Virus record (IMG/VR): IMGVR_UViG_2718218171_000003
Span: 1-47,909 of that record
Strand: one strand, 5' to 3'
Source of the DNA: a virus
Lineage: Duplodnaviria; Heunggongvirae; Uroviricota; Caudoviricetes
Length of the DNA stretch: 47,909 nt
Positions within the stretch are counted from its first letter, which is position 1. Every line of letters begins with the position of its first letter. The position numbers were made by a program, and so were the translations under genes. The notes beneath the pieces were generated by a model. That model did not search any database. It had not been told where the DNA came from and saw only the letters and a list, made by a program, of their open reading frames with translations. This document shows positions 2,198-42,686 of the stretch, one piece after another.

Positions 2198-5100
2198 TTA
2201 TCTCGTAAAGCTAGTTTTATGACTTCCTGTTAGCTGACTGTCTTCATAATAAAATGCTCCACTAAACTCCTGTCGACCATAATGATGACTTGATGTGAGT
2301 GAGCCCCCTATAACGCCCTTTTCACCTAATAATGTCCAAACGATTTCAAAACCATTGTCCCTTAACATTGTTAAAAATGGTTCTTTTTTAACAAGTAGAT
2401 GCGGCTTTGAAGCATATACAGCTTCAGCTGCAAAGCAAACCATAGTTCCATTTTCATCATTGAAGCTACCCTCTACTTCCCCACTTTTTAATCCCATCTT
2501 TTCAAAGATTAAGTTACTAGGCTTCAAAAAATTCAAAGTTTCTATTTTTGATTTGTCGAACTCCTCTTCCCACAAATAATTAATCGAAGTGACACTAACA
2601 TCAGCAATCTTAGCTCCAGACTCCCGGTCTGTTACCGAAGTCCAGTCAGATCCACCATAATAATCTGATTTAAAAGACTTAAATGCTTCGGACCAATAGT
2701 ACTCCCTATTAAATAATTGGTATCTATCAGTACATTCCGGCATCCACCTGCCCATAAAGTCTTGAGCTATTGCCCAATATCTAAAATTTTCAAATTCTTC
2801 AACTTTAACGATATAACTTCTGATCTGATACCAAACCTCTTTTCGTGGGTGCCCCCAATCATCGTTTCCAATAATTTTTGGTTCTTTCCATGATGGATAA
2901 CTTTCTAATACTATCCATTCATCACCATTATCATCTTTAACTTCAATAAAAGCATATGAATTAGTTATAGTAGTAGAACTTTTAACCCAGTCTTCATTAG
3001 AGCAAGTCCAATCAAACACTTCATCATTAAGCCACCACATTTCTTTATTGCTTATTTTTTTCGTTCCAGTTTCTTTAAGTAAGATAGTGGGATCTATATC
3101 TCTTACGTAAGGCTCCCATGGCCCTTGGTATGGATTTTCCTTTCGTTCGTCACCATAACCTTCAAAACGAGTAAAATTATCGGCTAGCCTTGCCATGTAT
3201 TCATAATAAGCAATCCATTGGTATTTTTTACCAATCCGTTCTTGGAATGCCTCTCTACGTCCACGTCCAGTTCCTATTTGTTGGTCAAAATTACCATGCT
3301 TCTCCGGATCCCAACCAAGCTCTATAACACGATTGAATATAAATTGTTGAGCTAGTCGAAGATCAAAGTGTTTATCAGTTTCCAGCAGATTATTATTATG
3401 ATCCAGGTATGGCTCTATTTCATTTTCAAACTCACTTAACAGATCGTATGACAATGAATTCTTAAATAATTTCTTGCTCGCCTTTATTTCTTCCTGTGCT
3501 TTTCTACCGACCACACGACCAAATTTAATTCCTTCGCATTTATCATCATAAATGAAAGGATCTGTGGCATCATACAAATCTTTTTGTTGATCAGTTAGTT
3601 TACATTTGAAAGTTTTAAAAACTTGCTTACGGTCAACAGGGGTTTCATTAAACTTGCAACCAGACCAATCAGAATGATTATAATTTGTACCAATAGTATA
3701 TCGTGAAAAGTCACCACCTTCCATAATCGAGCTCCAGAGTTCCCGATAAGGTTCTTTATCATAAAGGGACTCTAGTTCCTCTTTTGAAGGAATCTTGTCA
3801 GGCCAAATGCTGTTGTAGGGTGGTCTAGTCTTGGATAATTCAATGCTTTCAAGTTCCAATCCAAGATGATTAGCAAATTCAATAATCTCTCTAGCATAAT
3901 CTCTAAGTAATATATTTGGATACACATACTCAGAACAAAATACCTTTTGGTAAACAGTTTCGGCTAAATATTTTAGTTCTTTAATATTATCAGTTCGCAA
4001 TGTACAGCCTAATGCAACTGCAAATATTCTTTCCCAAACGTAAGGATCATTTACACCATAAAACTTATCAATTATTTTTCTCAATACAGGAATTCTTGGC
4101 TCGAGTAAACTCACTAAAGCCTTGGTTGAGCAATCTCGAAGTTCTCGGTTACTAGAAGTTAAAAACCAGCATAAACTAGTTGCAACTAGCTCGATTGACT
4201 CATCCGAAACAAAGCTTTTATCTGTTCTGGCCCATGCCCAATCGATTAGATGCCTAAAAGCTGAGTCTTCACTATATTTATATTTAAGTTCTGTAGTCCA
4301 AAACGAATCTCGATTTGCCAAAGAATAATCTTTTAGCCAATCATGCAAGAAATTAGCATTAAAGGGATGGTCAACTAAACCTGAAATAGAGATCACTGCC
4401 TCGAGGAAATGATCAAAACTATCTTTAAATTTAAAAACATGTTCATTGATGAAAGGTCTAATTTTTTCGAAATCAATAGCCTTAATATCTCGCCATATCA
4501 AGCTATCAATAAAGGCTTCTAGTAATTTAAGATTATTGCTAAACTCCGGCAGAAATTCATAAAGCTCTTTTTCATACCTTTCTGGCAATTGAATAGACAG
4601 CGCCTCTACTATTCCCGATTTTATATAAAAATCACATTCATCATGAAAATATTTTTTCAGACGACCATCAGGCTTAAATTCACTTTCGATATTTTCAACA
4701 TCATTTAATAAAAAATTAACAGTTAAATGATCATCAAACCTTTCAAAAGCCACATAAACTACTTCCTCAGTAGAATTATCATCATTTCTCACTATGCCTT
4801 TAGTCAATAATCCTTCGTCAATCAAGGCGCTGAGGAAGGTTTTATCAGCAACATAATCATTAACTACAGATTGAACCACTGAGTGAGCATCTTTAAGTGA
4901 AATACTATTACGACCAATCTCTAATTTGAATTTTATGATTTCATTGAGAGCATCTTTAACAAGAGGAAAACTGGGATCGAATGCATATTTTCTTGGCGAT
5001 GCTAATGATTTATTTACCCCTTCCACTAAAAAGTTAAAAATATTTGAAATCCCATTAAATCCAACAGGCACTTTGGTTAAACCATTTTTCTTAATGCCTT

Positions 5101-39493: not shown

Positions 39494-40039
39494 TCATATT
39501 GCCCCCAGCATGGTGGTAACCATCGCCATTAATGGACCAGCCAGATCCGGGTCCACACGAAACATCGACACAATACCTTCACTCATTTCCTTCAGTTTCT
39601 GGTGGCGTGGTGCGTTGAGAATGACCGCCTGCTTTGCCTCACTGAGTTCCTTTTCCATTTCAGCCAGCCGAGCTATGAAGCTATCCTGCTCAACCAGGTG
39701 GCCGCGATATTCCAGCGGTAGTACCGCCAGAATTGCCGGGGTCAGTTCACGCACGTTATTTCGGTATTTTTCAGAATCGAATTTGTTATCGAGGAAGCGG
39801 AACAACTTCTGGCGTGCACGGCTGACATCATCAGGGAAATCGATGGTGCCGCCGCCCAGCTCCCGATACTCATTCACAATGAGTGCGGCAACAACATCCT
39901 GATTATCTGCAGCCGACCAGGCGCGAACGGCATCACGGATTTTTTCGTGGCCTGGCGCCTGTTTTGTTTGAGAACGATTTATCACCGCAGTCGGGCTAAA
40001 TCCGCTAGTCTGTTGGTATGTAAGTGGTTGCATAGTCAT
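39494..40039 (-). CDS. 181-aa early-operon protein in the cII position, function unknown
   Basis: ORF between cro-like gene and O with AAGG RBS; not lambda CII by sequence or size. Confidence 0.5.
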   Translation of the reverse strand: MTMQPLTYQQTSGFSPTAVINRSQTKQAPGHEKIRDAVRAWSAADNQDVVAALIVNEYRELGGGTIDFPDDVSRARQKLFRFLDNKFDSEKYRNNVRELTPAILAVLPLEYRGHLVEQDSFIARLAEMEKELSEAKQAVILNAPRHQKLKEMSEGIVSMFRVDPDLAGPLMAMVTTMLGAI

Positions 40040-40063: not shown

Positions 40064-40291
40064 TTAGGCGGCAGAATTACTCGCGTTAAACAATGGTGCG
40101 AGGTCGGGACGAATATCTGCTGGTTTAATCTTTCCACCAGTGGCTGAGACAATTTTCATTACATAGCGGGCATCAATTCCGCCACCGTGTAGCCAACGCC
40201 AAACAGTGGGTTGGGCTACACCGCATAGATCTGCCAGTCGTTTTTGACTACCTGTAATACTGATTGCGAGTTGAATGGTTTGATTTGTCAT
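40064..40291 (-). CDS. cro: Cro-like HTH regulator
   Basis: 75 aa from ATG at 40291; HTH-like QKRLADLCGVAQPTVWRWLHGG; divergent from cI. Confidence 0.75.
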   Translation of the reverse strand: MTNQTIQLAISITGSQKRLADLCGVAQPTVWRWLHGGGIDARYVMKIVSATGGKIKPADIRPDLAPLFNASNSAA

Positions 40292-40322
40292 TATCAATTC
40301 CTATTGGTATTGCAATGAATAG

Positions 40323-40351
40323 ATAATAGCAATGCGTATTAACTCAATCAA
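40323..40351 (-). promoter_or_regulatory. pR-like sigma70 promoter driving cro and replication genes
   Basis: Minus strand -35 TTGATT (40351-40346), 17-nt spacer, -10 TATTAT (40328-40323); AGGA RBS before the cro ATG. Confidence 0.6.
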
Positions 40352-40365
40352 TAGCAAAACGTGTT

Positions 40366-40393
40366 TTGACCATCAATACGCAAGCGTATAAAT
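40366..40393 (+). promoter_or_regulatory. pRM-like promoter for cI, predicting a leaderless transcript
   Basis: -35 TTGACC (40366-40371), 16-nt spacer, -10 ATAAAT (40388-40393); predicted start site at or next to the cI ATG at 40402, which has no Shine-Dalgarno sequence. Confidence 0.5.
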
Positions 40394-40401
40394 TAAAACT
40401 T

Positions 40402-41094
40402 ATGAAAAAAGAAACTCTTGCTGATCGCTTAAACCTAGCGATGGAACAATCTGGAATGTCTCAAGGCGCTCTTGCAAAGGCGTCTGGCGTAGCTCAACCC
40501 ACAATCTGGAGACTGACAAGCGGCAACGCGCGCGGCTCAACAAAAATTGTTGAAATAGCTAATGCATTGGGTGTTCGAACAGAGTGGCTCTCATCAGGCA
40601 TAGGCCCGATGAGAAATGACGGTCAACAATCAGGGAAGCCTGCTGTCAACCATTCCAAATACTTCAAGATTGACGTTCTTGATATAGAAGTCAGTGCCGG
40701 GCCGGGTGTCATCAATCGTGAGTTTGTAGAAGTTCTACGCTCGGTTGAGTACTCGTTTGACGATGCTCGTCACATGTTCGATGGCAGGAAGGCAGAAAAT
40801 ATCCGCATCATTAACGTGCGTGGTGACAGCATGTCAGGAACGATCGAACCAGGTGATCTGCTGTTCGTTGATATCACGGTTAAATCTTTCGACGGTGATG
40901 GCATCTATGCGTTTCTGTACGACGACACCGCCCATGTAAAGCGCCTGCAAATGATGAAGGATAAGCTGCTGGTTATCTCTGATAACAAGAGCTACTCACC
41001 GTGGGACCCGATCGAGAAAGACGAGATGAACCGGGTGTTCATCTTCGGTAAGGTTATTGGGAGCATGCCCCAGACGTACAGGAAACATGGATAA
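40402..41094 (+). CDS. cI: CI-type repressor (N-terminal HTH, C-terminal LexA-like S24 autopeptidase)
   Basis: HTH MSQGALAKASGVAQPTIWRL; Ala-Gly cleavage site in EVSAGPG; catalytic Ser in VRGDSMSG and Lys in HVKRL. Confidence 0.9.
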   Translation: MKKETLADRLNLAMEQSGMSQGALAKASGVAQPTIWRLTSGNARGSTKIVEIANALGVRTEWLSSGIGPMRNDGQQSGKPAVNHSKYFKIDVLDIEVSAGPGVINREFVEVLRSVEYSFDDARHMFDGRKAENIRIINVRGDSMSGTIEPGDLLFVDITVKSFDGDGIYAFLYDDTAHVKRLQMMKDKLLVISDNKSYSPWDPIEKDEMNRVFIFGKVIGSMPQTYRKHG

Positions 41095-41174: not shown

Positions 41175-41444
41175 ATGAGTGATAAAAAACTTATTAAAAA
41201 ATCAAATAACTGTGTAGATGCATATGCTGATGCATTTGGATATTCATCTTTTGGGGAAGATGACGATCGCTTAGGCTCCATATCTTTCTTTCAGCATGTT
41301 ACAGAATGGGACGCTGATGGTAGTAATGACACTGAAAGCGTAAAGTACAACATTGCAACAATTCGCATGACGGAAGATTTAATGCTTAAACTCGCTGACT
41401 TTATTCGCGATCAGCATGATAGAGCTAAAACCAATAAGTCATAA
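41175..41444 (+). CDS. Hypothetical 89-aa protein, first gene after cI (rex position)
   Basis: ATG at 41175 with GGAAAGG RBS; AT-rich; no recognisable motif. Confidence 0.45.
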   Translation: MSDKKLIKKSNNCVDAYADAFGYSSFGEDDDRLGSISFFQHVTEWDADGSNDTESVKYNIATIRMTEDLMLKLADFIRDQHDRAKTNKS

Positions 41445-41452
41445 TATTAACA

Positions 41453-41893
41453 ATGAAACACGGTTATTACGAAGCTCCAAACCTAACTGAAAAGCTTGAA
41501 CAAGCGGCAAGATCATCATCTTTGCACACCGCAGCATTTTCTCAATCAGCTGGTATGTCTGGCGGTAATGTACCTATGCTACAATCAAGTGGTAGCGGTG
41601 GCTCTGGGAGTAATAATGTGCTTGAATCGAAAGTTGCAAAGCTTGAGTCTGATGTGTCCTACATCCGACGTGACGTTGATGAGCTCAAGACAGATGTCAA
41701 ATCTATCGACAGAAACATGATCGCTGTTCTGGAGCGACTCGATTCAATAAAAGAGTCACTAGCCAAAAAACCATCCATCGATGCTGTCGATAGAAAGATT
41801 TCAGACGCAAAGCTTGCGGTATTGCTTGGTGTTCCAGCAATCATCGCTGCAGGAACAGGGCTTTATAAGCTATCAATGTACTTTTTTCTTTAG
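41453..41893 (+). CDS. 146-aa protein with Gly/Ser linker, coiled coil and C-terminal transmembrane anchor (XhlA-like architecture)
   Basis: SSGSGGSGS linker, heptad-like LESKVAKLESDVSYIRRDVDELKTDVKSIDRNMIAVLERLDSIKESL, C-terminal LAVLLGVPAIIAAGTGLYKL; AT-rich. Confidence 0.5.
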   Translation: MKHGYYEAPNLTEKLEQAARSSSLHTAAFSQSAGMSGGNVPMLQSSGSGGSGSNNVLESKVAKLESDVSYIRRDVDELKTDVKSIDRNMIAVLERLDSIKESLAKKPSIDAVDRKISDAKLAVLLGVPAIIAAGTGLYKLSMYFFL

Positions 41894-41982: not shown

Positions 41983-42036
41983 CCCGTGAACTGACCCCCG
42001 AAAGTTGGACAGTTCACGGGCCCGGGTTTTCTTTTG
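41983..42036 (+). terminator. Terminator-like hairpin ending the cI operon
   Basis: Perfect 11-bp stem CCCGTGAACTG / CAGTTCACGGG with 16-nt loop, then CCCGGGTTTTCTTTTG. Confidence 0.55.
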
Positions 42037-42173
42037 CCTCCCCTCATCACACACCGTTCAAAAAACCACCACAACCCCGCTTCGGTTATCGCTATGCGAT
42101 GCAAGTCACAAAATTAATTCTTTTTGCTATCAAACATTTAATATCAAAACACATCTAGCAATAGCAATAAGTA

Positions 42174-42202
42174 TTGATATCATCAATAGCAATAGCTATT
42201 AT
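42174..42202 (+). promoter_or_regulatory. pL-like promoter with overlapping operator repeats (OL)
   Basis: -35 TTGATA (42174-42179), 17-nt spacer, -10 TATTAT (42197-42202); inverted repeat AATAGC-AATA-GCTATT across the -10; AATAGCAAT motif shared with the cI-cro intergenic region. Confidence 0.55.
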
Positions 42203-42395
42203 CACCATATCGCAACAACACAACGATACGGCAACCACCTGATTCACCGTTGCGATGACCGCTTAGATCCGCAGCTTGAATTTCAGCAGGCTCAGGGGAG
42301 TGCGAGGGGTGAAGCGGACGCGTGAACGTCGGTGTGACCAGCTGAAATTAACTCAACACTTCATACCTCAGTCGCTTCAACGAGGCGGCTTAGTT

Positions 42396-42686
42396 ATGAC
42401 AACCGGCGGCCATCCACCGCCTGAATACGCGCAGAAGTCTCTATATGTTCAGCAGCCCAGCTTACGGGCAGGAGTTTTTATGGTTCATCAACATTACGGA
42501 ACGCAGACCGTTAATCGCGGTGCGGTCATGCCAGGAATGCTGGTCAAACACAAAGATGGTACCTGGACTGCATCAGCTAATTTACGCGGACGGCTATATC
42601 TGCATCGCGGCATCGAGCGCACTTATACCCGTGATTTGCTCGTGGAAGTTTTTCTCGACGGACGCGGTAACGGCCTGAATCACTAA
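42396..42686 (+). CDS. Hypothetical 96-aa protein, first gene of the pL operon
   Basis: ATG at 42396 with GAGG RBS; track ORF extends upstream to a TTG at 42276; no recognisable motif. Confidence 0.4.

Follow-up and report, generated by a model that had tools for sequence, protein, structure and literature searches.

Which sequences set the choice between lysis and lysogeny in this prophage, and how would its repressor read them? The 110 bp between cro and cI of a lambdoid prophage (40292-40401 of the window, the 47.9-kb stretch of DNA analysed here) were earlier described as carrying divergent promoters, repeated operator motifs and a leaderless cI start. We conclude that this region is very probably a lambda-type immunity (lysis/lysogeny) switch, working like lambda OR/OL. 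The features on which this reading is built are collected in Table 1.

Table 1. Genes, promoters and sites of the switch region, numbered from the first nucleotide of the window (a dot in the strand column, no strand assigned)
Feature	Position	Strand	Sequence or elements	Remarks
cro	40064..40291	-		75 aa; Cro-type lytic repressor, YdaS/P22-Cro-like, all-helical; recognition helix AQPTVWRW
cI	40402..41094	+		230-aa repressor; 434-like HTH and LexA/UmuD-like S24 self-cleaving domain
pR	40323..40351	-	TTGATT (40351-40346), 17-nt spacer, extended -10 TGcTATTAT	-10 at 40328-40323
pRM	40366..40394	+	TTGACC (40366-40371)	-35, followed by overlapping -10 candidates
pRM -10 candidates			TATAAA 40387-40392; ATAAAT 40388-40393; TAAATT 40389-40394	spacers of 15, 16 and 17 nt, respectively
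pL	42174..42202	+	TTGATA (42174-42179), 17 nt, TATTAT (42197-42202)	
OR1	40325..40340	.	AATAGCAATGCGTATT	putative operator; covers pR -10 and spacer; centre -16.5
OR2	40350..40365	.	AATAGCAAAACGTGTT	putative operator; overlaps pR -35 by 2 nt, centre -41.5; abuts pRM -35
OR3	40375..40390	.	AATACGCAAGCGTATA	putative operator, divergent; covers pRM spacer and -10 edge; centre about -19.5
OL2	42160..42175	.	AATAGCAATAAGTATT	putative operator; overlaps pL -35 by 2 nt; centre -41.5
OL1	42185..42200	.	AATAGCAATAGCTATT	putative operator; overlaps pL -10; centre -16.5
ATTGCAAT	40309..40316	.	ATTGCAAT	about +1 to +8 of predicted pR transcript; not an operator
Candidate OR4	40296..40311	.	AATTCCTATTGGTATT	about +6 to +21 of pR transcript; possible weak fourth site
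OL3 candidate a	42116..42131	-	GATAGCAAAAAGAATT	centre -85.5 from pL
OL3 candidate b	42140..42155	+	AATATCAAAACACATC	20 bp from OL2; centre -61.5

Genes flanking the control region

The repressor gene and cro diverge around a short control region, the arrangement of a lambdoid switch. The cro product matches Pfam YdaS_toxin (9.6e-15) and, weakly, P22_Cro; it falls in PHROG 35 (transcriptional repressor), weakly matches the solved structure of Xfaso1 Cro (3bd1) and begins at the start codon annotated by PGAP in E. coli. The cI product contains the Pfam domains HTH_3 and Peptidase_S24, belongs to PHROG 4 and matches solved 434 repressor and UmuD' structures, the 434 repressor being the nearest solved structure for its N-terminal domain (E = 1.6e-5 to 1e-4). 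As in lambdoid switches, an N-terminal HTH is joined to a C-terminal S24 domain that carries an Ala-Gly site along with a Ser/Lys dyad: the self-cleavage residues are Ala99-Gly100, Ser143 and Lys180, within the motifs AGPG at residue 99, GDSM at 141 and HVKRL at 178. The recognition helix of cI is AQPTIWRL (residues 31-38); the helix GVAQPT(I/V)WR is common to cI and Cro (E = 4e-9) and invariant throughout the repressor group.

The gene in the cII position encodes a YdaT-family protein (Pfam). Downstream of pL no N gene is evident, kil being the first recognisable gene, and an Rfam scan of the whole window matched no family. An HK022/HK639 put-type antiterminator RNA after pL is not supported, as similarity to the annotated HK639 putL is patchy; the post-pL segment folds no better than its shuffles (z = 0.07).

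Divergent promoters

The near-consensus minus-strand promoter of the preliminary description (TTGATT-17-TATTAT), pR, was confirmed both by position and by a promoter scan, and it has a TG at the extended -10 position. Its start is predicted, from spacing alone, at the A at 40316, which would give cro a 25-nt leader. Among 36 aligned versions of the region from relatives, the pR -10 never varies and the -35 keeps its TTG. The plus-strand promoter is likewise present in the form proposed (TTGACC-16-ATAAAT). Its register is ambiguous, however, and the scan picked TAAATT with a 17-nt spacer. The pRM transcript is predicted to start within 40398-40402, most likely at A40402.

The pRM -35 is nearly invariant in a comparison made without conditioning. 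In the pRM -10 region, TATAAATT is identical in 10 genus-level relatives, for which it also served as the anchor that located the sequences. Since the pRM -35 is far nearer consensus than that of lambda, pRM here may not depend on cI for its activation. The top match of the promoter scan was pL (10/12), with hexamer positions that relatives keep and a predicted start at the A at 42209. The scan returned 4 promoter-like sites in 2.6 kb versus 4.8 expected, so hexamer matches by themselves are not above chance.

A 16-bp dyad over pR, pRM and pL

Five 16-bp dyads, OR1-OR3 and OL1-OL2, lie in the OR and pL regions. The operator unit appears to be a 16-bp pseudo-palindrome with the ideal form AATAGCAA|TTGCTATT, rather than the 9-mer proposed earlier. 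Three such dyads lie in tandem over back-to-back sigma-70 promoters, pR and pRM, and the same sites are found at pL beyond cI, as in lambdoid switches. The 9-mer AATAGCAAT itself occurs at 40325 and, as previously noted for this motif, recurs at pL (42160 and 42185), with AATAGCAAA at 40350. The earlier statement that such repeats overlap both promoters applies to pR, while pRM is covered by the divergent OR3 sequence, which had not been named.

The geometry of these sites is regular. OR1, OR2 and OR3 are spaced exactly 25 bp apart, the OL2/OL1 geometry is equal, and OL1 and OL2 are centred on pL (-16.5 and -41.5) identically to OR1 and OR2 on pR. OL2 is a direct repeat of OL1 at the 25-bp spacing and is conserved in relatives, OR3 matches the right half of OR1 as an inverted repeat, and the centre of OR2 lies at about -44.5 from the cI ATG.

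The pattern AATAGCAANNNNTATT, with zero or one mismatch, occurs in the 47.9-kb window only at OR1, OR2, OL1 and OL2. It is matched exactly by OR1 and OL2 and with one mismatch by OR2; OL1 matches exactly on the plus strand and with one mismatch on the minus strand. A scoring matrix built from the relatives' sites was run over the whole window and ranked OR1 (22.3), OL1 (21.4), OL2 (20.4), OR3 (17.2, rank 4) and OR2 (16.9) as its top five, a result not fully independent of the window because the relatives' OR2 and OR3 in the matrix are identical to its own. The best score in each of 100 shuffled windows averaged 13.0 (sd 2.3), and scores of at least 12 were reached 8 times in the window versus 0.93 expected. 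When half-sites are compared, the right halves of OR2 and OR3 have 5 mismatches each and the halves of OL1 have 0 and 1; the invariance of the OR2 and OR3 right halves may partly reflect promoter constraint.

Conservation across relatives

The footprinting set comprised 42 distinct versions of the region from six genera; per-nucleotide variation was taken from 36 aligned distinct versions. Across the 42 versions the sites, the pRM -35 and the pR -10 are nearly invariant and the spacers are saturated with changes. In the 36 aligned versions, and with conservation partly conditioned on the search and alignment anchors (TATAAATT-N7-ATGAAAAA, ATAGCAAT in OR1, and ATTCC), variation per nucleotide was 0.06 in OR2 (one variant), 0.12 in OR3 (two variants), 0.17 in the pRM -35 and 0.81 in OR1, where it is confined to central positions 10-12, compared with 7.44 in the OR1-OR2 spacer and 5.38 in 40312-40324. 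The three OR blocks and TTGACC are conserved in E. coli, Klebsiella, Salmonella, Kluyvera, Citrobacter and Raoultella, whereas the 9-bp OR1-OR2 spacer differs in almost every genus. In a heteroimmune control (PhiR47_2, ST101-KPC2phi6.1 and K. grimontii), the same C-terminal domain is combined with a different HTH and different repeats in the same layout. Matrix ranking, geometry and conservation together support the earlier proposal that these motifs are repressor operators of this immunity type, once the unit is corrected to the 16-bp dyad.

The immunity type is very common. Of 5,426 complete E. coli genomes, 718 (about 13%) contain at least 80% of the cro-cI segment, the repressor is encoded on more than 550 IMG/VR viral contigs, and the type also occurs in Salmonella ST104 and BTP1 and in Klebsiella, Kluyvera, Citrobacter and Raoultella.

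Could cI instead recognise the 9-bp direct repeat AATAGCAAT and bind it head-to-tail, in the manner of the P2-type C repressor? In all five strong sites the better half, AATAGCAA or AATACGCA, does face the same way at a regular 25-bp period, and, OL1 apart, the right halves match poorly (3-5 mismatches). This reading is nevertheless very unlikely. OL1 is nearly symmetric, and OR1 of phage Fraca is a perfect 16-bp palindrome (AATAGCAATTGCTATT). In the OL sites of BTP1, Kluyvera, Citrobacter and Klebsiella the strong half lies on the opposite side (AATACTCAATGCTATT and AATACCCATTGCTATT in OL1 of other genera), as expected for a dyad, with the outer AATA...TATT always kept and TATT conserved as much as AATA. 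Additionally, the HTH of cI is of the 434 type and its S24 domain is a dimerising one. That the repeats are a chance likeness in AT-rich intergenic DNA with no regulatory role could draw on the best OR-versus-OL 16-mer match (14/16), which 7 of 300 shuffles of the same AT-rich DNA also attained, and on the lack of enrichment of promoter-like hexamers. It is effectively refuted by the matrix ranking over the whole window, the restriction of matches with zero or one mismatch to OR and OL, the identical geometry at pR and pL, and the strong footprint both across genera and within the population.

ATTGCAAT and candidate additional sites

One motif named in the preliminary description, ATTGCAAT, did not hold up as an operator repeat. 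It occurs once, lies outside the 16-bp dyad, appears as ATTACAAT, ATTGAAAT, TTTGCAAT and ATTGCAAC in relatives, differs at several positions even between near-identical E. coli ones, and is absent from Klebsiella and Salmonella relatives. This polymorphism and the half-site comparison (8 and 6 mismatches) rule it out.

Candidate OR4 has the sixth-best matrix score in the whole window (15.1) and overlaps the cro Shine-Dalgarno AGGA (40302-40299, minus strand). Its outer (A/T)ATTCC..GTAT(T/A) is conserved and its centre varies across genera, a conservation explained in part by the Shine-Dalgarno sequence. Near pL, OL3 candidate a matches the operator pattern with two mismatches and has a low matrix score (8.3); its block AATTCnTTTnGCTATC is conserved in E. 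coli, Salmonella, Kluyvera and Citrobacter while the flanks vary. OL3 candidate b matches with three mismatches, the left half being good and the right half degenerate. All relatives keep the left half AATAnnnA at that place, and in some it equals AATAGCAA. A 9-mer common to the OR2/pRM junction and the OL3b region, TCAAAACAC, was treated as chance because it is not conserved in BTP1.

The segments 40296-40311 and 42116-42131 share an unusual AATTC outer half. It is conceivable, though on balance doubtful, that this immunity type uses more than 3+3 operators, with these two segments as auxiliary cI/Cro sites that might serve, for example, as OL-OR loop anchors or as a roadblock. If so, the additional wiring might be relevant to the reported spontaneous induction of BTP1, which is exceptionally high and occurs in a phage with the same operators.

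The start of the cI transcript

In lambda, the cI start codon lies at or next to the pRM start and has no Shine-Dalgarno sequence. Here too, in agreement with the earlier description, no purine run resembling a Shine-Dalgarno is seen in the 20 nt that precede the cI ATG at 40402 (AAGCGTATAAATTAAAACTT). The -10 is 7-9 nt away from the ATG, a distance fixed in all relatives: from TATAAATT to the ATG there are always exactly 7 nt, variable in sequence and free of a Shine-Dalgarno. Related switches with other specificities, of the HK639 and PhiR47_2 types, keep this geometry, with a -10, 6 nt and then the ATG. Every -10 register would place the start 0-4 nt from the AUG. The conserved spacing indirectly supports the proposal that transcription starts at or next to the ATG, as a predicted window of 0-4 nt instead of a single position, and with it a leaderless or near-leaderless cI mRNA.

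It is unlikely that the switch is as described and cI is nonetheless not leaderless, through a start further upstream, another promoter, or translation from TTG 40366. The open reading frame does reach up to this in-frame TTG, at which the RefSeq BTP1 record annotates the c1 start, and the pRM -10 register is ambiguous among three spacers. No mapped start of the cI transcript was found in the literature searched, the D23580 transcriptome papers and supplements giving gene coordinates and expression values only. However, TTG 40366 begins at the first base of the conserved -35 TTGACC, directly against OR2, and so leaves no room upstream for a promoter or ribosome site. The 12 codons from TTG to ATG change non-synonymously in relatives (I/S/L; LKL/FEI/FET/LNI), with no protein-level constraint seen, PGAP picks the ATG in E. 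coli, and the -10-to-ATG distance is fixed though the sequence varies. The non-synonymous changes and the PGAP choice make TTG 40366 an unlikely start for cI, and the site map would correct the upstream start annotated for BTP1 c1.

Proposed mechanism of the switch

By analogy with lambda, we infer how such a switch would operate. In a lysogen, cI dimers would occupy the 16-bp operators. Occupancy of OR1 and OR2, possibly cooperative, would hide the -10 and -35 of pR and turn off cro, the YdaT-type cII and the replication genes, and occupancy of OL1 and OL2 would silence pL, 1.8 kb away, in the same way; the two regions might also be joined by OL-OR looping. From OR2, directly against the pRM -35, cI may stimulate its own transcription, and at high cI the divergent OR3 would fill last and shut pRM off. 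The transcript from pRM, starting at the AUG or no more than about 4 nt from it, would be translated as a leaderless or near-leaderless mRNA. Upon DNA damage, S24 self-cleavage at Ala99-Gly100 would allow pR and pL to fire, and Cro, with nearly the same recognition helix as cI, would bind the same sites and silence pRM. Opposite site preferences of cI and Cro, giving bistability and SOS induction, are predicted; the shared recognition helix and the high cI expression in BTP1 lysogens (PMC7067206) agree with this indirectly.

Comparison with known immunity systems

The architecture is textbook lambda-type. As in lambda, cI and cro are divergent and about 110 bp apart; three tandem dyad operators lie over back-to-back promoters, with OR1 on the pR -10, OR2 between both -35s and OR3 inside pRM; the sites repeat at pL about 2 kb away; and the repressor is a self-cleaving S24 protein. 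The components differ. The operator of lambda is 17 bp and of the TATCACCGC type, compared with 16 bp and AATAGCAA/TTGCTATT here, where the 25-bp spacing is uniform and the pRM -35 (TTGACC) is near-consensus. In addition, the cI DNA-binding domain is 434-like instead of lambda-like, Cro is of the all-helical YdaS/P22 type, the 'cII' is a YdaT-family protein and pL is followed by no evident N gene.

The repressor and Cro of phage 434 share a recognition helix and operators, and cI and Cro here likewise have a common recognition helix. Its sequence differs from that of 434, however, and neither OR nor OL contains the 434 operator (ACAA-N6-TTGT, 14 bp). More broadly, the operator consensus of lambda, 434, P22, epsilon34, CP-933P, HK639 or PhiR47_2 was not found in OR; the only match, in OL, was a lone TATCACC heptamer at 42200.

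The PaaR2-YdaS-YdaT module of CP-933P is also a lambdoid switch with YdaS as Cro, YdaT as CII and operators at OR and at a pL-like promoter (PMC8630535). For its repressor, 5' RACE together with N-terminal sequencing showed the mRNA to be leaderless (Jurenas et al. 2021; PMC8630535), and four repeats were reported in its intergenic region, which bears on the candidate fourth site here (PMC8630535). PaaR2, however, has no homology to cI/S24 repressors, its gene is followed by a toxin-antitoxin pair, and the operator consensus (GTTTAGTAA) is absent here.

Among known lambdoid immunity operators, the match is to the ST104/BTP1 type. The P22-like Salmonella phages ST104, BTP1, SE1 and ST160 form the 'ST104' repressor specificity type (Villafane et al. 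2008; PMC2629481). Their cI shows 85% overall identity to the one here, and full identity in the HTH (MSQGALAKASGVAQPTIWRLTSGNARG). The operators are laid out alike: OR2 is unchanged, OR1 and OR3 carry 0-2 substitutions at central bases, and OL1 and OL2 match almost completely. The repressor DNA-binding domain and operators are thus those of this specificity type, and with the same HTH and near-identical operators, ST104/BTP1-type phages and the prophage here are very probably homoimmune. The two differ in backbone (P22-like podovirus versus lambda-like here), in cII type, in the genes downstream of cI (bstA in BTP1), in the N gene that BTP1 has, and in OL1, where the strong half lies on the other side.

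In searches of the BTP1/ST104 operator and immunity-region literature, neither a published map of the operators of this immunity type nor binding, footprinting or transcript-start data came to light, and a full-text search for the operator motif returned only unrelated primer matches. For a very common immunity type, sequence evidence now defines an operator consensus, a site map and the promoter geometry. In BTP1 lysogens a single transcript start drives high expression of the cI-bstA operon (PMC7067206). Spontaneous induction of BTP1 is very high, and the immunity region was suggested as a possible cause (PMC5322425); the defined site map makes this suggestion testable.

Organization of the immunity region

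The interval 40292-40401 is the gap between two divergent genes, cro and cI. It belongs to a lambdoid prophage's immunity region, lying here in reverse of the usual lambda map orientation. Structure matches relate the N-terminus of cI to the DNA-binding domain solved for the 434 repressor and the C-terminus to UmuD'; the hallmarks of self-cleavage are present (Ala99-Gly100, Ser143 within GDSM, and Lys180). Past cro lie the YdaT-family gene and then lambda-type O and P replication genes. The YdaS-family cro and the YdaT-family gene form a regulator pair of the Rac/CP-933P type, unlike lambda-type Cro and CII. Past cI are two small genes without known function, an AT-rich stretch (42100-42210), and then kil, gam-like, bet and exo.

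These two small genes take up the 'moron' slot (rexAB/bstA) that follows cI, and their transcription probably starts, together with that of cI, at pRM, the predicted cI promoter. Cargo in this slot differs widely among relatives: BTP1 has BstA, PhiR47_2 has GevT/GevA, a Klebsiella phage has RexAB, and the near-twin E. coli phage 4A7 has a gene with an ASCH domain. A long plus-strand hairpin at 41983-42035 (CCCGTGAACTG ... CAGTTCACGGG, then CCCGGG and TTTTCTTTT), just ahead of the operators at pL, is the likely terminator of the cI operon; its 16-nt loop kept it out of the calls of the terminator scan. After pL (42203-42480) there is no evident gene for an N-like antiterminator, and this segment, when compared with the HK639 RNA annotated as putL-like, showed patchy similarity only and no significant fold. 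The first recognisable product after pL is Kil (PHROG 294; residues 60-136 of ORF 42276-42686), and the N-terminal extension of this ORF is rich in arginine (VKRTRERR).

Features of the immunity region. Scores are from the operator weight matrix; variation is the number of versions with the minor base, per nucleotide, in 36 versions
Feature	Position	Strand	Score	Variation	Description
YdaT-family gene	39494-40039	-			cII position; 181 aa; Pfam YdaT_toxin 4e-29; PHROG 'CII-like activator'
cro	40064-40291	-			75 aa; YdaS-family, P22-Cro-like
Candidate extra OR site	40296-40311		15.1		AATTCCTATTGGTATT
Segment before OR1	40312-40324			5.38	
OR1	start 40325		22.3	0.81	variation confined to central positions 10-12, plus one
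OR1-OR2 spacer				7.44	9 bp
pR	-35 40351-40346; -10 40328-40323	-			TTGATT, 17 nt, TATTAT; promoter scan
OR2	40350-40365		16.9	0.06	
pRM	-35 40366-40371; -10 40389-40394	+		0.17 (-35)	TTGACC, 17 nt, TAAATT; promoter scan
OR3	40375-40390		17.2	0.12	AATACGCAAGCGTATA
Between TATAAATT and ATG				2.0	7 nt
cI	40402-41094	+			230 aa; N-terminal HTH_3, C-terminal Peptidase_S24
Small gene	41175-41444	+			PHROG 4231
Small gene	41453-41893	+			PHROG 3556, coiled-coil-like
Candidate extra OL site, distal	42116-42131				AATTCTTTTTGCTATC; kept across four genera, flanks variable
Candidate extra OL site, weak half-site	42140-42155				20 bp from OL2; only left half good
OL2	start 42160		20.4		
OL1	start 42185		21.4		
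pL	-35 42174-42179; -10 42197-42202	+			TTGATA, 17 nt, TATTAT; promoter scan

Predicted promoters and operator sites

The promoter scan recovered the same pR hexamers as the preliminary description, and pR also has TG at the extended -10 position. For pRM, the proposed -35 was retained while the 16-nt spacer with ATAAAT proved to be one of three overlapping -10 registers; the scan selects TAAATT, and the third has a 15-nt spacer and TATAAA. Promoter-like hexamers by themselves prove nothing, since four matches were found against 4.8 expected in shuffled sequence. The heptamer TATCACC, the half-site of the lambda operator, occurs directly after the pL -10 (42200-42206) and is kept in relatives from other genera (ATTATCACC); its conservation is probably due to chance or promoter context.

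The repeat unit is longer than the 9-mer first proposed. In the 47.9 kb, the pattern AATAGCAANNNNTATT with 0-1 mismatch occurs only at the starts of OR1, OR2, OL2 and OL1, which bears out the recurrence at pL given in the preliminary description. OR3 is a third, divergent OR element with both halves shifted to an AATACGC type, and it forms an inverted repeat with the right half of OR1. We scanned the window with a symmetrised weight matrix built from 13 distinct sites of relatives, with the window and 4A7 left out. The five sites were the top five matches, compared with a mean best match of 13.0 (sd 2.3) in 100 Markov-shuffled windows, and eight matches scored at least 12 where 0.93 were expected.

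Site starts are spaced exactly 25 bp apart within both OR and OL. Relative to the predicted transcript starts, OR1 and OL1 are both centred at -16.5 and OR2 and OL2 at -41.5; thus, pR and pL have identical geometry. OR2 directly adjoins the pRM -35, and OR3 spans the pRM spacer as far as the -10. Operator sites overlap both divergent promoters: OR1 and OR2 at pR and, at pRM, the divergent OR3, which the preliminary description had not named.

Conservation of the operators among relatives

The helix-turn-helix of cI is essentially identical across relatives from E. coli, Salmonella, Klebsiella, Kluyvera, Citrobacter and Raoultella. The three 16-bp OR blocks, TTGACC and TATAAATT (also a search anchor) are identical or nearly so in these relatives, and the OR1-OR2 spacer is different in almost every genus (AACTCAATC, GGCTTTAGC, AACCAAAGC, GCCCATAGC, GATGTTGGC and others). 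Our sample comprised 91 loci with 42 distinct versions of the region, 36 of which aligned without gaps and gave the variation values. The positions fixed by anchors of the search or alignment are TATAAATT-N7-ATGAAAAA, ATAGCAAT of OR1 and ATTCC; no such conditioning affects OR2, the pRM -35, the pR -10 or most of OR3. The OL region follows the same pattern of conservation. The evidence in hand, drawn from sequence comparison, is of site identity, position and evolutionary constraint.

Two observations speak for a 16-bp dyad, presumably bound by a repressor dimer, and against a direct repeat of 9 bp. Relatives from Salmonella, Kluyvera, Citrobacter and Klebsiella retain the outer AATA...TATT of OL1 but have its strong half on the other side (AATACTCAATGCTATT, AATACCCATTGCTATT), and OR1 of phage Fraca (cI 77% identical, recognition helix AQPTIWRI) is a perfect palindrome, AATAGCAATTGCTATT. 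A natural control is provided by PhiR47_2, ST101-KPC2phi6.1 and K. grimontii, which share the cI C-terminal domain and have a different helix-turn-helix. These three, and also HK639, have entirely different repeats (AACC..GGTT and ATAACC..GTTAT types) in the same three-site layout.

The second motif of the preliminary description, ATTGCAAT (40309-40316), falls at the 5' end of the predicted pR transcript, from about +1 to +8. Even E. coli copies that are otherwise nearly identical differ in it (ATTACAAT, ATTGAAAT, TTTGCAAT, ATTGCAAC), and relatives of other genera lack it, which rules it out as an operator.

Three further sites may be auxiliary operators. The sixth-best matrix match in the whole window, 40296-40311, is a candidate for a weak fourth operator at a distance of 29 bp from OR1, because its outer bases are kept across genera and its centre varies. 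It lies over the cro Shine-Dalgarno DNA, which explains this conservation in part. Fraca has a half-site, GATAGCAA, at the equivalent place. The distal OL candidate has an AATTC outer half in common with 40296-40311, and the left half of the weak OL candidate is AATATCAA, or AATAGCAA in some relatives. A precedent for extra sites is CP-933P, whose intergenic region is reported to have four repeats (PMC8630535).

The cI start

No Shine-Dalgarno sequence precedes the ATG at 40402, in agreement with the preliminary description: the 20 nt upstream (AAGCGTATAAATTAAAACTT) contain no such element. The distance from TATAAATT to the ATG is exactly 7 nt in every relative; these 7 nt vary (AAAACTT, TGAAATT, GAATATT, AAAAACC, TGAGACT) and, in the relatives compared, never include a properly placed Shine-Dalgarno. 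Heteroimmune relatives have a -10, 6 nt and ATG (TACATT-TGAACT-ATG; TAAATT-GAAAAG-ATG; TATATT-GATAAG-ATG), an arrangement like that of lambda pRM. Each of the three pRM -10 registers predicts a transcript start 0-4 nt from the AUG, and A40402 is the sole purine among the favoured positions. Leaderless translation has been proved for paaR2 of CP-933P, another YdaS/YdaT-type lambdoid switch (PMC8630535), and in BTP1 lysogens cI-bstA is a strongly expressed operon with a single transcript start (PMC7067206). On this good but indirect evidence, we consider it likely that the cI mRNA is leaderless or nearly so.

Alternatively, translation could begin at TTG 40366, as the BTP1 annotation would have it: there c1 (NC_042346, 2965-3690; D23580 STMMW_03541) is given a TTG start, which precedes the conserved ATG by 36 nt. 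However, TTG 40366 coincides with the pRM -35 hexamer and adjoins OR2, the codons between it and the ATG are without protein-level constraint, and the PGAP start is the ATG. In BTP1, too, the TTG opens the -35 hexamer of pRM, so the annotated c1 start is probably wrong. In the Salmonella phage ST-87 record (about 2999-3010), the AAAAAA run after the cI ATG is one A shorter (ATGAAAAAG vs ATGAAAAAAG), indicating a frameshift or sequencing error in that record.

Distribution of the module

The cro-cI module is found at 96-98% DNA identity in E. coli phages 4A7, Lambda_4C10, D2, 1W, 3W, Perceval and PhiR30_1. Of 5,426 complete E. coli genomes, 2,212 match part of the segment at 95-99% identity and only 718 contain at least 80% of it; therefore, one module, probably cro or the C-terminal domain of cI, is common to other immunity types by recombination. 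In IMG/VR, over 550 contigs encode the repressor. Repressors with 82-85% identity are found in the Salmonella P22-like phages BTP1, ST104, SE1 and ST160, in phages of Klebsiella, and in Kluyvera, Citrobacter and Raoultella prophages.

Proposed mechanism and comparison with known immunity types

By analogy with lambda and 434, cI dimers on OR1 and OR2 and on OL1 and OL2 would occlude pR and pL, and cI at OR2, next to the pRM -35, may activate pRM. The near-consensus TTGACC suggests that pRM is less dependent on activation than in lambda. OR3 would mediate negative autoregulation, and Cro would probably bind there first. The recognition helix GVAQPT(I/V)WR is common to both proteins (BLASTP E = 4e-9) and invariant across the group, which supports the use of one set of operators by cI and Cro. 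Prophage induction would follow from RecA-stimulated self-cleavage of cI at Ala99-Gly100.

The design of this switch is lambda's. In the comparison with known lambdoid immunity groups that the preliminary description proposed, the operator sequence differs from the consensus operators of lambda, 434 and P22 and from those of epsilon34, CP-933P, HK639 and PhiR47_2. 'ST104' has been listed as a distinct, unstudied repressor specificity (Villafane et al., PMC2629481). BTP1 has the same immunity region as ST104, and its high spontaneous induction has been speculatively ascribed to that region (Owen et al., PMC5322425). Operator mapping for the ST104/BTP1 type appears in neither paper, and full-text literature searches returned none. 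Thus, with a sequence unlike the compared types and no published mapping found, the switch of the window is a new and well-defined member of an already known kind of system.
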